A stretch of DNA of 64,000 nt from a virus (IMGVR_UViG_3300017565_000002:96001-160000); one strand, 5' to 3'. Counted from the stretch's first letter, positions 47,368-48,929 are shown. Numbers and translations: made by a program. Notes: generated by a model from the letters alone, not told the origin.

Positions 47368-48420
47368 ATGATGAAAACACTAAAACTATCGAAGAAGAAC
47401 CTATCGTTGCTACAGGAAAAGGCAAACGCCGGAGATCAAGAAGCCATTGAAACGTTGGCCCAATATGAAGCTCAGCAAGCAGAGAAGGAGAGAAAGAAAC
47501 AAGAACGCAAAGAAAAAAGACTCACAACGGTGCGTAGGGACAATCTGTCCGCACCGCCGATGGACTATGTCAATTTTGAAGATCAGCAACTGGGGAGCCC
47601 AGTTGAAAAGCTATCCAAGGATTTGAAAGGACAAGTTACCCAATTGACCATTGAAGATATCAGATATCTGGTCGATTCTTATTATCAGATTCAGAACAAC
47701 AGAATCCGTTCTTCCAACCAAGTCAGGGCGTCGGAGGAGTTGGGAGAAGCAAATGGTGTTCTGGTGTGGATCAACGAAAATAATACACTGCTTGAAAATA
47801 ATATTAAGAAAGCGTTGGATATTTATACAGACTACACACCAGTTGGTCGGTGGTTGAAATCGATCGTTGGTATTGGTCCCGTGTTGGCCGCTGGGTTACT
47901 CGCCCATTTAGATATTACAAAGGCGGAAACCGCAGGCGCATTTTGGAGATTTGCAGGATTAGACCCGAGCGTTACATGGGACAAGGGACAAAAACGTCCG
48001 TGGAACGCAGACTTAAAGACACACATGTGGAAGATTGCCGATTCGTTCGTCAAACAATCGTCCCGTCCATCGGACTACTATGGGAAGATTTATCTTGGAC
48101 GTAAACGGTATGAGCAAGAGAAAAATGAAAAGGGCGAGTATAGGCTAAGAGCCGAACGCGCTTTACAGCAGAGAAAATTTGTAAACGAGACTGACACAAA
48201 GGCAACCTATGAGAGTGGGAAGATTACCAATGGACATATTGAGTCAAGTGCTCGCAGATATGTCGAGAAGATCTTCTTGTCTCATCTACACCATGTAATG
48301 TATTTACATCATCACAAAATCGCACCACCGAAACCTTTTGCTATCTCCATTTTGAACCATGCACACATGATTGAAGTTCCGAATCTGGAAGCACACTATG
48401 ACGATCTAATCAAAAACTGA
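47368..48420 (+). CDS. tasA: TIGR-associated Nop-domain protein without nuclease domain (TasA-like; IS110 C-terminal homologue; not the Bacillus biofilm TasA)
   Basis: Coiled coil DIRYLVDSYYQIQNNRIRSSNQ; HhH LKSIVGIGPVLAAGLLAHLDI; FWRFAGLDP; PWNADLK; SARRYVEKIFL. No N-terminal DEDD RuvC motif. Directly abuts a dual-repeat array. Confidence 0.85.
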   Translation: MMKTLKLSKKNLSLLQEKANAGDQEAIETLAQYEAQQAEKERKKQERKEKRLTTVRRDNLSAPPMDYVNFEDQQLGSPVEKLSKDLKGQVTQLTIEDIRYLVDSYYQIQNNRIRSSNQVRASEELGEANGVLVWINENNTLLENNIKKALDIYTDYTPVGRWLKSIVGIGPVLAAGLLAHLDITKAETAGAFWRFAGLDPSVTWDKGQKRPWNADLKTHMWKIADSFVKQSSRPSDYYGKIYLGRKRYEQEKNEKGEYRLRAERALQQRKFVNETDTKATYESGKITNGHIESSARRYVEKIFLSHLHHVMYLHHHKIAPPKPFAISILNHAHMIEVPNLEAHYDDLIKN

Positions 48421-48929
48421 TTGTATCATGATTAAGGAGCGAACCATATTTTTCGAATTAGTTTCAAGCAAAATGAGTGAACCATTTAACAGGATAGTAC
48501 CATAAAGAATGAGTGAGTCATTTGGAGGGATAGTATCATGATTATGGAGCGAACCAAATGCGATGGATTAGTTTCATATGATATGAGTGAACCAACATGA
48601 GTGAAAGTATCACCAAGAGTGAGTGAGTCATTTGGTGGGATATAGTATCATAGGTGTCAGAGCGAACCATGTGTACTGGATTAGTTTCATAAGACATGAG
48701 TGAGCCATTTAAGGCGAAAGTTTCATGAGAAATGAGCGAGCCAAGATTAATGGATAGTATCATAGGTGTCAGAGCGAACCATATTTTTCGAATTAGTTTC
48801 AAACAAAACGAGTGAGCCATCTTAGGCGAAAGTTTCATGAGATATGAGCGAACCATATTTTTCGAATTAGTTTCATGCAAAACGAGTGAGCCATCTTAGG
48901 CGAAAGTTTCATGAGATATGAGCGAACCA
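48419..48929 (+). repeat. TIGR-like tandem dual-repeat guide array (13 full units plus a leading half unit)
   Basis: 14 copies of GAGYGARYCA at 48437, 48475, 48511, 48547, 48585, 48621, 48660, 48698, 48734, 48772, 48810, 48846, 48884, 48920 alternate with a second 10-12 nt repeat ending AGTWYCA, separated by 8-9 nt variable segments; period 36-39 nt. Confidence 0.93.

Follow-up and report, generated by a model that had tools for sequence, protein, structure and literature searches.

The guide array located at positions 48419-48929 of the 64,000-nt stretch of viral DNA analyzed here (hereafter, the window) very probably belongs to a phage-borne, nuclease-less TIGR-TasA system whose guides were built by recombination between repeats of 10-12 nt. 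Judged from their sequences, its 13 guides are not 13 independent addresses. The array lies directly 3' of a tas gene devoid of a nuclease domain and is present in a single copy in the 215.8-kb phage genome, one contig of 215,803 bp and 41% G+C from soil metagenomes, the few recognisable relatives of which are jumbo phages. The system itself is a known one, of a family described in 2025; what is new is the evidence on the processes by which its arrays change. How TIGR arrays originate, grow and are renewed is a named open problem, and the way in which they gain and change spacers has been stated to be unknown (PMC12045711; bioRxiv 10.64898/2026.09.09.750476).

The array has the dual-repeat composition of TIGR arrays; its 13 units are preceded by a half unit and closed by an edge repeat, all read on the plus strand. 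Regex parsing of positions 48437-48929 resolved 14 edge repeats of the form GAGYGARYCA bounding 13 units of 36-39 nt each, in which an edge repeat (10 nt) is followed by spacer A (8-9 nt), a loop repeat (10-12 nt) and spacer B (8-9 nt); this parse leaves a choice only as to where three 9-nt spacers are delimited and how the first G in the GGATTAG loops is assigned. The 13 spacer pairs thus obtained matched letter for letter those listed in an earlier note on this DNA. Edge repeats occur as five variants, all 14 of which keep the ends GAG...CA; the ends G......CA are likewise kept in 14 of 14 loop-type repeats, 12 of which start with GA. The leading orphan half unit (48419..48436) consists of a loop-type repeat, GATTGTATCA, that overlaps the tas stop codon, and of a spacer B0, TGATTAAG. 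At the corresponding place, the related array L003 displays an edge repeat truncated at its 5' end along with a spacer A, and the window array has therefore lost its first half unit. The first repeat of the L003 array is a truncated GAGTGAACCA, and its last is a degenerate version of the same sequence. TIGR arrays have been reported to start and finish with truncated edge repeats (PMC12045711); the ends of L003 fit this rule and support the assignment of edge and loop repeats made in the earlier note.

The tas gene (47368..48420, plus strand) is preceded by a candidate sigma-70-like promoter, TTGATA-16-TATAAT (47265..47292, plus strand), which matches the consensus at 11 of 12 positions; the candidate is based on this match only, and the phage could rely on an RNA polymerase of its own. 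No terminator was found between tas and the array. A strong intrinsic terminator, in which a stem of 13 bp with a loop of 4 nt is followed by a run of T (48941-48970, or up to 48976; plus strand), starts 11 nt past the array end and would close a tas-array transcription unit. Searches of positions 44000-52000 for Rfam families returned zero matches at E values up to 1. The possibility that the array codes for a protein (minus-strand ORF, 48542-48880) was discarded, since units of 36-39 nt shift the frame from each unit to the next. Also rejected was a CRISPR array, in that two 10-12-nt repeats alternate here with spacers of 8-9 nt, as opposed to a single repeat of 25-36 nt with spacers of similar size; no Cas families were found among eight neighboring proteins.

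The tas product (350 amino acids) is TasA-like, with a Nop/IS110-C fold, and its only Pfam match is PF02371, the IS110 C-terminal family (E 3e-7). Compared to PDB sequences, it matched TasR 9mty (E 4e-12) and SpTasH (E 5e-10), and the best Foldseek matches of its AlphaFold model (pLDDT 81.8) were TasR 9mty and TasH 9w04 (E ~5e-7 over ~235 columns), with the IS621 and ISCro4 recombinases ranking behind them. Neither Pfam nor the model of the N-terminal region revealed an HNH or RuvC domain; the latter region is predicted to form two helices (residues 1-54) followed by a disordered linker (residues 54-82). Most of the 3,423 homologues of the protein are 265-290 amino acids long and cover residues 79-340, and the 78-residue N-terminal extension is present only in this Tas and in one relative sharing 72% identity with it. 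The protein is thus a Tas of the TasA class with an N-terminal extension. The reading frame of tas is intact and encodes every invariant residue of the family alignment. Tyr289 of SpTasH, the putative tigRNA-processing tyrosine, is a Phe in this Tas, and His296 is conserved; the Phe makes it uncertain that this Tas processes its own guides through the published Y/H mechanism.

The locus thus displays what characterizes TIGR-Tas systems: a Nop-domain Tas beside an array, two alternating repeats, units of ~36 nt, and a closing edge repeat followed by a terminator. Box D-like and box C-like repeat ends are present as well, but the repeats start here with GA, the published motifs being UG and CCA. 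The likeness is closest to the TasA class (PMC12045711; bioRxiv 10.64898/2026.09.09.750476), with which the locus shares a Nop-fold Tas without nuclease domain, an adjoining array in which edge and loop repeats, with GA at the start and CA at the end, alternate, units of ~36 nt that each hold two spacers of 8-9 nt, a terminator past the last edge repeat and a phage carrier. It differs from this class in that the array is non-uniform (five edge variants, loops of 10-12 nt and a three-unit higher-order arrangement), in that 9 of the 13 units have a guide half in common with another unit, and in that its Tas harbors the 78-residue extension and the Phe in place of Tyr289 of SpTasH. By analogy with the published biochemistry of the family, the array would be co-transcribed with tas up to the terminator, and the transcript would be cut within edge repeats to yield tigRNAs of ~36-39 nt. 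Spacers A and B (8-9 nt) of each tigRNA would pair with opposite strands of adjoining DNA, such that the address would be of 16-18 bp and would consist, on one strand, of the sequence of A and then that of B reverse-complemented; this layout is our reading of the 3'-overhang geometry in PMC12045711, and both layouts were searched for targets. The address would direct a TasA dimer to bind its target, and probably to block transcription rather than cut.

The units of the array are of three types that follow one another in the order a,b,c,a,b,c,a,b,c,a,b,a,b, a three-unit higher-order arrangement that goes beyond the relations described in the earlier note. Type a units always carry the edge GAGCGAACCA and the 12-nt loop GRATTAGTTTCA. 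Units 1-3 (48437..48546; types a, b and c) carry the spacer pairs TATTTTTC/AGCAAAAT, TTTAACAG/TAAAGAAT and TTTGGAGG/TGATTATG. The edges of units 4-6 (48547..48659; types a, b and c) are those of units 1-3, unit for unit, and units 3 and 6 stand out by their rare edge GAGTGAGTCA and have A spacers, A3 and A6, one letter apart. Among units 7-9 (48660..48771; types a, b and c), B7 differs by two letters from B4 while the repeats of the two units are identical and their A spacers differ by five letters, and B9 equals B6 within an exact tract of 29 nt, common to 48642 and 48754, that links the loop-B-edge segments of units 6 and 9. Units 10-11 (48772..48845; types a and b) are copies of units 1 and 8; units 12-13 (48846..48919) are a 74-bp tandem copy of units 10-11 lying between identical GAGCGAACCA edges, and the closing edge repeat (48920..48929) is again GAGCGAACCA.

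The individual relations that had been pointed out in the earlier note all held. The near-exact tandem duplication has two mismatches in its 74 positions, and spacer B of unit 12 contains both of them. Spacer A TATTTTTC is found in three units, accompanied there by AGCAAAAT, AACAAAAC and TGCAAAAC as variants of B; units 6 and 9, the A spacers of which are unrelated, both have TAGGTGTCA as their spacer B; and two pairs of point variants were found, TTTGGAGG/TTTGGTGG one letter apart and TTTAAGGC/TCTTAGGC two letters apart. To these may be added the likeness of B7 to B4 described above and that of spacer B0 of the leading half unit, which is one letter from B3. Consistent periods were returned by Tandem Repeats Finder, at 74 nt (2.1 copies, 97% matches), 112 nt (1.9 copies, 85%) and 110 nt (2.6 copies, 76%). 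The array is thus a mosaic. Unit 10 derives from unit 1, with which it shares its edge, A spacer and loop and from which its B spacer differs by two letters, and not from unit 7, although the latter is its counterpart in the 112-nt period. Unit 11 derives from unit 8, with three changes in spacers and none in repeats, and is identical to unit 13, making one guide fully redundant. The right half of unit 9 comes from unit 6 and its left half is unrelated. Exact tracts of 30-31 nt running across repeat, spacer and repeat link units 1, 10 and 12, which all carry the repeat variant GAATTAGTTTCA, and the longest exact tract (52 nt) relates 48804 to 48878. The spacers of unit 5, 9A, A4 and A7 are without a close relative in the array, and those of unit 2 only weakly so.

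Short-read assemblies often mis-join tandem repeats, and the Logan contigs do break inside the array, such that the 74-bp duplication, or the pattern as a whole, could conceivably be an artefact of assembly that merged strain variants. We consider this exceedingly improbable. A 104-nt Logan contig found in two runs from one soil sample bridges the junction between units 11 and 12 with at least 31 nt on each side (42 and 62 nt), running from spacer B of unit 10 through unit 11 and the junction into unit 12, with TGCAAAAC, and on to unit 13; the other B variant, that of the AACAAAAC copy, is found on a different contig of 61 nt, and word depth on the duplicated part is ~1.6-1.9x. Pieces from a second study agreed letter for letter wherever the array was covered, and a separately filed ENA contig of 215,623 bp is identical over 7,053 bp. 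The earlier note had named reads failing to span the duplication as grounds for dismissing it; both variant copies are present and bridged, and the duplication is real. The four soil runs and two assemblies were all identical, yielding no variant of this phage's array, and a scan of metagenomes for such variants returned one 32% relative only; the order and direction of events within the array are therefore read from a single snapshot.

The likeness between spacers exceeded by far that expected by chance. Nine spacer pairs in the window array differ by one mismatch at most, compared to a mean of 0.8 and a maximum of 7 in 5000 column-preserving shuffles, and chance is excluded as its source. 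Near-identical pairs occurred at rates of 0.064 (spacer A) and 0.051 (spacer B) in the window array, 0.004-0.006 within other arrays and 0.0008 between unrelated arrays, making near-identical spacers ~70 times commoner in the window array than between unrelated arrays of the same family. The share of units in near-identical relations (9 of 13) is the highest among arrays of at least 6 units, and whole-unit related pairs number 6 in the window versus 8 in the other 50 arrays together. Furthermore, the distance between repeat variants correlates with that between spacers (Mantel r 0.47, p 0.0004), such that spacers resembling each other are copies that moved together with their repeats, not independent arrivals. 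Distances between spacers at matching unit types were 0-3 or 5-6, never 4, and those between types showed one peak at 4-6. These two classes point to two separate modes of change, one being slow point change on copies and the other the wholesale swap of single 8-nt spacers, with flanking repeats left identical, for which units 4 and 7 provide an example.

Similar spacers might alternatively have reached the array independently, through an adaptation process drawing on related target sites, in the way CRISPR arrays take up variants of one protospacer. The literature names no adaptation route for TIGR arrays and rules none out, and the closest array has no spacer in common with the window, while arrays found beside Tas proteins 99-100% identical differ in most of their units; a rapid source of new spacers thus exists somewhere. 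Against such a process stand the rare repeat variants that related spacers share (GAGTGAGTCA in units 3 and 6; GAATTAGTTTCA in units 1, 10 and 12), the exact tracts within which related spacers lie and which run through repeats, and the lack of a recognisable integrase or Cas1-like family gene beside the array. The sharing is, moreover, specific to the A or B role of the spacer, yet TasR guides in which A and B are swapped still work (PMC12045711). Likeness driven only by common targets should therefore ignore role, and copying driven by repeat homology should respect it. Taken together, these points make independent arrival very unlikely as the origin of the related spacers.

The role-specific sharing was apparent in a survey of 51-55 non-redundant arrays (641-651 units) from loci encoding Tas relatives, parsed with a regex of our own that used fixed 8-nt spacer windows and retained only arrays with an edge repeat resembling GAGNGANNCA. 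In 51 arrays, near-identical spacers numbered 62 in the same role versus 10 in opposite roles, out of 10,344 comparisons each, a 6.2-fold difference (Fisher p 2.5e-10) with the cross-role rate at background. When the window was left out, 53 near-identical same-role pairs were counted versus 8.5 expected and a maximum of 19 under column-preserving shuffling within each array. About two thirds of the near-identical same-role pairs are isolated halves, both neighbors of which are unrelated, and short-patch conversion fits this pattern better than does the exchange of blocks.

Comparison of related arrays, as had been proposed in the earlier note, revealed internal gains and losses of units, exact replacements of single spacers and rearrangements of blocks. 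Arrays L061 and L065 are 99.9% identical over 5.4 kb, the sole difference being one 8-nt spacer B that was exactly replaced, and the new form is 7/8 identical to another B spacer of the same array with identical flanks. What distinguishes L015 from L016 (~99% identical) is two identical units in tandem inside the array, with A spacers one letter from that of another unit; L042 and L051 differ by one internal unit and by two letters in one spacer. In L008, L009, L012 and L014, where Tas is 99-100% identical and flanks are 87-98% identical in aligned segments, the arrays (12-46 units) have only blocks in common, in different orders, with breakpoints in both kinds of repeats such that the same A occurs with different B spacers and vice versa. 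None of these comparisons showed new units added at one end only. L003, whose Tas is 72% identical to that of the window, has 15 units; their repeats are uniform, none of their spacers are near-duplicates of each other, and none recur in the window.

The earlier note had proposed that the array diversified from within rather than through CRISPR-like acquisition. Duplication, point change and re-pairing of guide halves are borne out by the Mantel correlation, the exact tracts and the relatives devoid of polar addition. The exclusion of acquisition, in contrast, went too far: copying cannot explain the spacers of unit 5, 9A, A4 and A7, nor the full turnover relative to the closest array, and a source of wholly new spacers is thus still needed.

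Point changes on copies were confined to spacers. Parsimony applied to units 1/10/12 and 8/11/13 placed six substitutions, six of six in spacers and none in repeats. With 16 spacer letters and 20-22 repeat letters per unit, the probability of this outcome under an even spread is ~0.0065 by our calculation. This argues that the repeats have probably been under constraint since the duplications and that the array is, by the same token, likely to be in use. The repeated guides and variant edges could otherwise be regarded as the debris of a system no longer under selection, a reading with which the five edge variants, the orphan leading half unit, the redundant guide (unit 11 being identical to unit 13) and the Tyr-to-Phe change at the putative processing residue would be compatible. 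It is rendered highly improbable by the end motifs kept in all 14 edge and all 14 loop-type repeats, by the avoidance of repeats by substitutions, and by the intactness of the terminator and of a tas frame retaining all invariant family residues; Phe, furthermore, occupies the processing position in 31 of the 120 closest homologues.

The differences between duplicated guides might themselves be adaptive, with each variant, e.g. the three TATTTTTC guides, fitting a different natural variant of one target site in a host or a competing element, such that duplication and mutation would allow the guides to follow targets that escape. All six recent substitutions lie in spacers, and the ones that separate unit 8 from unit 11 affect the inner positions 2, 4 and 6, which are mismatch-sensitive in TasR and TasH; those among units 1, 10 and 12, in contrast, fall at positions 1, 2 and 8, the mismatch-tolerant edges in both proteins, and neutral change with constraint on repeats alone predicts the same pattern. 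Searches moreover returned no target, and we hold adaptive variation to be rather unlikely. The search of the phage's own genome that the earlier note had suggested, run against shuffled spacers, yielded no target above the null: composites matched nowhere with one mismatch or less in either strand layout at gaps of 0-2, and counts at 2-3 mismatches were equal to the counts given by 60 sets of shuffled spacers. Exact half-sites for A and B were found no more than 60 bp apart twice in this genome, versus ~0.8 expected by our estimate. Matches in viral contigs did not separate the two layouts (for the guide 9 composite, three in the preferred layout and four in the other, three being one homologous site), and no second guide matched these loci with fewer than 2 mismatches. 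Among 401 Bacilli genomes, the degenerate composite of the three TATTTTTC guides matched in 167, at 256 sites at least; many genomes were also matched by the reversed-pattern control, and the recurrent sites do not fit the real B spacers. The Bacilli matches show only that such short AT-rich addresses occur by chance. These matches in viral contigs and Bacilli genomes, at chance level or uninterpretable, agree with a published warning of false positives for such short addresses.

With the related spacers read as copies, the array may have formed as follows. A triplet of unit types a, b and c would have multiplied, units 1 and 8 would have been copied to positions 10 and 11, and units 10-11 would then have been duplicated in tandem between identical GAGCGAACCA edges. 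Single guide halves would also have been exchanged, with breakpoints in edge and loop repeats, probably by short-patch conversion, resulting in the re-pairing of A and B spacers. Point substitutions would then have gathered in spacers alone, because the repeats would be held constant by the need to bind Tas.

Satellite DNA acquires its higher-order repeats by unequal crossing-over, which favors exchange between exactly identical copies and fixes a multi-unit period. The return of an identical GAGCGAACCA edge at every third or second unit of the window array resembles this situation; the units differ from satellites, however, in being functional RNA guides with selected repeat parts, and the scale is just 0.5 kb. 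In antigenic variation (pilin, VlsE), a short variable segment with conserved flanks is replaced by a copy from another cassette. This is an analogy only, the array having no dedicated expression site or silent cassettes, and the likeness to cassette conversion is drawn solely from natural variants such as L061 versus L065. Arrays of short repeats that change by internal duplication, deletion and the exchange of blocks between related arrays, besides dedicated acquisition, are known from CRISPR (Kupczok et al., Genome Biol Evol 2015, PMC4524480). In contrast to TIGR arrays, CRISPR arrays have one spacer per unit and polar acquisition by Cas1-Cas2. A TIGR guide consists of two halves separated by the second repeat, and breakpoints in this repeat thus create new A/B pairings, for which CRISPR has no counterpart.

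Short repeats have been suggested to limit recombination in TIGR arrays (PMC12045711). Within the scope of one array and a small survey of 51 arrays, our comparisons point to the opposite, in that recombination between repeats would be frequent, would act on single halves as well as on blocks and would respect the A and B roles, with repeats conserved while spacers change. We tentatively propose, as a reading that is plausible though short of probable, that TIGR arrays need no adaptation machinery: new addresses of 16-18 bp would arise combinatorially, from the copying and re-pairing of 8-nt half-guides, by short-patch conversion and unequal exchange at edge and loop repeats alike, within and between co-circulating arrays, and would be refined by mutation limited to spacers. 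If so, the window array, with 9 of its 13 units involved, and the spacer swap between L061 and L065 would be the first natural snapshots of the process. Recombination between repeats predicts conversion tracts bounded by two repeats, a dependence on recombination functions, and same-role sharing that holds across the 6,685 catalogued arrays; the related arrays provide natural before-and-after pairs.

Finally, blastn searches of tas and the array against a collection of phage records returned nothing, and tblastn searches of the same collection returned no Tas relatives other than distant ones, carried by phages of Salicola and Microcystis. The contig that encodes the nearest Tas (72% identity) is 7.9 kb long and shares nothing else with this genome; the tas-array pair therefore travels as a cassette.

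The viral contigs L061 and L065, recovered from different samples, are identical over 5.4 kb save for one 8-nt spacer B that has been exactly replaced (L061:1812-1819 vs L065:1391-1398). The replacement spacer matches another spacer B of the L065 array (L065:1968-1975) at seven of its eight letters, and the flanking repeats are the same. From their sequences, the two contigs appear to form a natural pair that shows an array before and after spacer conversion. Sharing of blocks was seen in four other Tas-relative loci, the arrays of which (L014:785-2440, L008:1576-2439, L009:1540-2439 and L012:1749-2180) harbor 12 to 46 units each and have only blocks of units in common, next to Tas proteins that are 99-100% identical. 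A "B-edge-A" module consisting of GGAGTATC, the edge repeat and AGCACGCG recurs in this group, its neighbors on either side changing from one occurrence to another. Breakpoints were commoner in the loop-type than in the edge repeat, with 26 vs 8 run ends, respectively, these counts being non-independent.

A 112-codon ORF on the minus strand (48542-48880) spans the array of the window. A repeat protein was rejected as its product, and the ORF is mechanical, because the 36-39 nt lengths of the units shift the frame. The 17-mer TATTTTTCGATTTTGTA, which matches none of the real guides of this array, was found at one site each in ~17 mostly large genomes of the Bacilli scan (e.g., G331:C1:6336907-6336923), where it probably belongs to conserved coding sequence as a motif.

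The tas-array pair behaves as a cassette set in unrelated contexts, since homology between the phage genome and L003, the contig encoding the closest Tas relative (72% identity), is confined to tas and the array (L003:913-2500 vs window 47368-48976), the neighboring L003 genes (Thg1-like, SpoU methylase and trypsin-like) being without counterpart in the phage. The two Tas proteins alone share an N-terminal extension (residues 1-82; 47368-47610) made of two Lys/Glu-rich helices followed by a disordered linker; other family members start around residue 79 of the window Tas.

Alignment with SpTasH, in which Y289 and H296 form the catalytic pair for pre-tigRNA processing, identified F324 (48337-48339) and H331 (48358-48360) as their counterparts in the window Tas. 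Phe also occupies the first position in the 72% relative and in 31 of the 120 closest Tas homologues, 77 of which have Tyr. With Phe in place of the catalytic Tyr, part of this TasA family may not process its own RNA in the published way.

The window also encodes a GroEL-like chaperonin (41800-43611), which shares ~22% identity with its counterparts in Yersinia phage phiR1-37 and in jumbo phages of Staphylococcus and Listeria; kinship of the phage to described jumbo phages is distant only.
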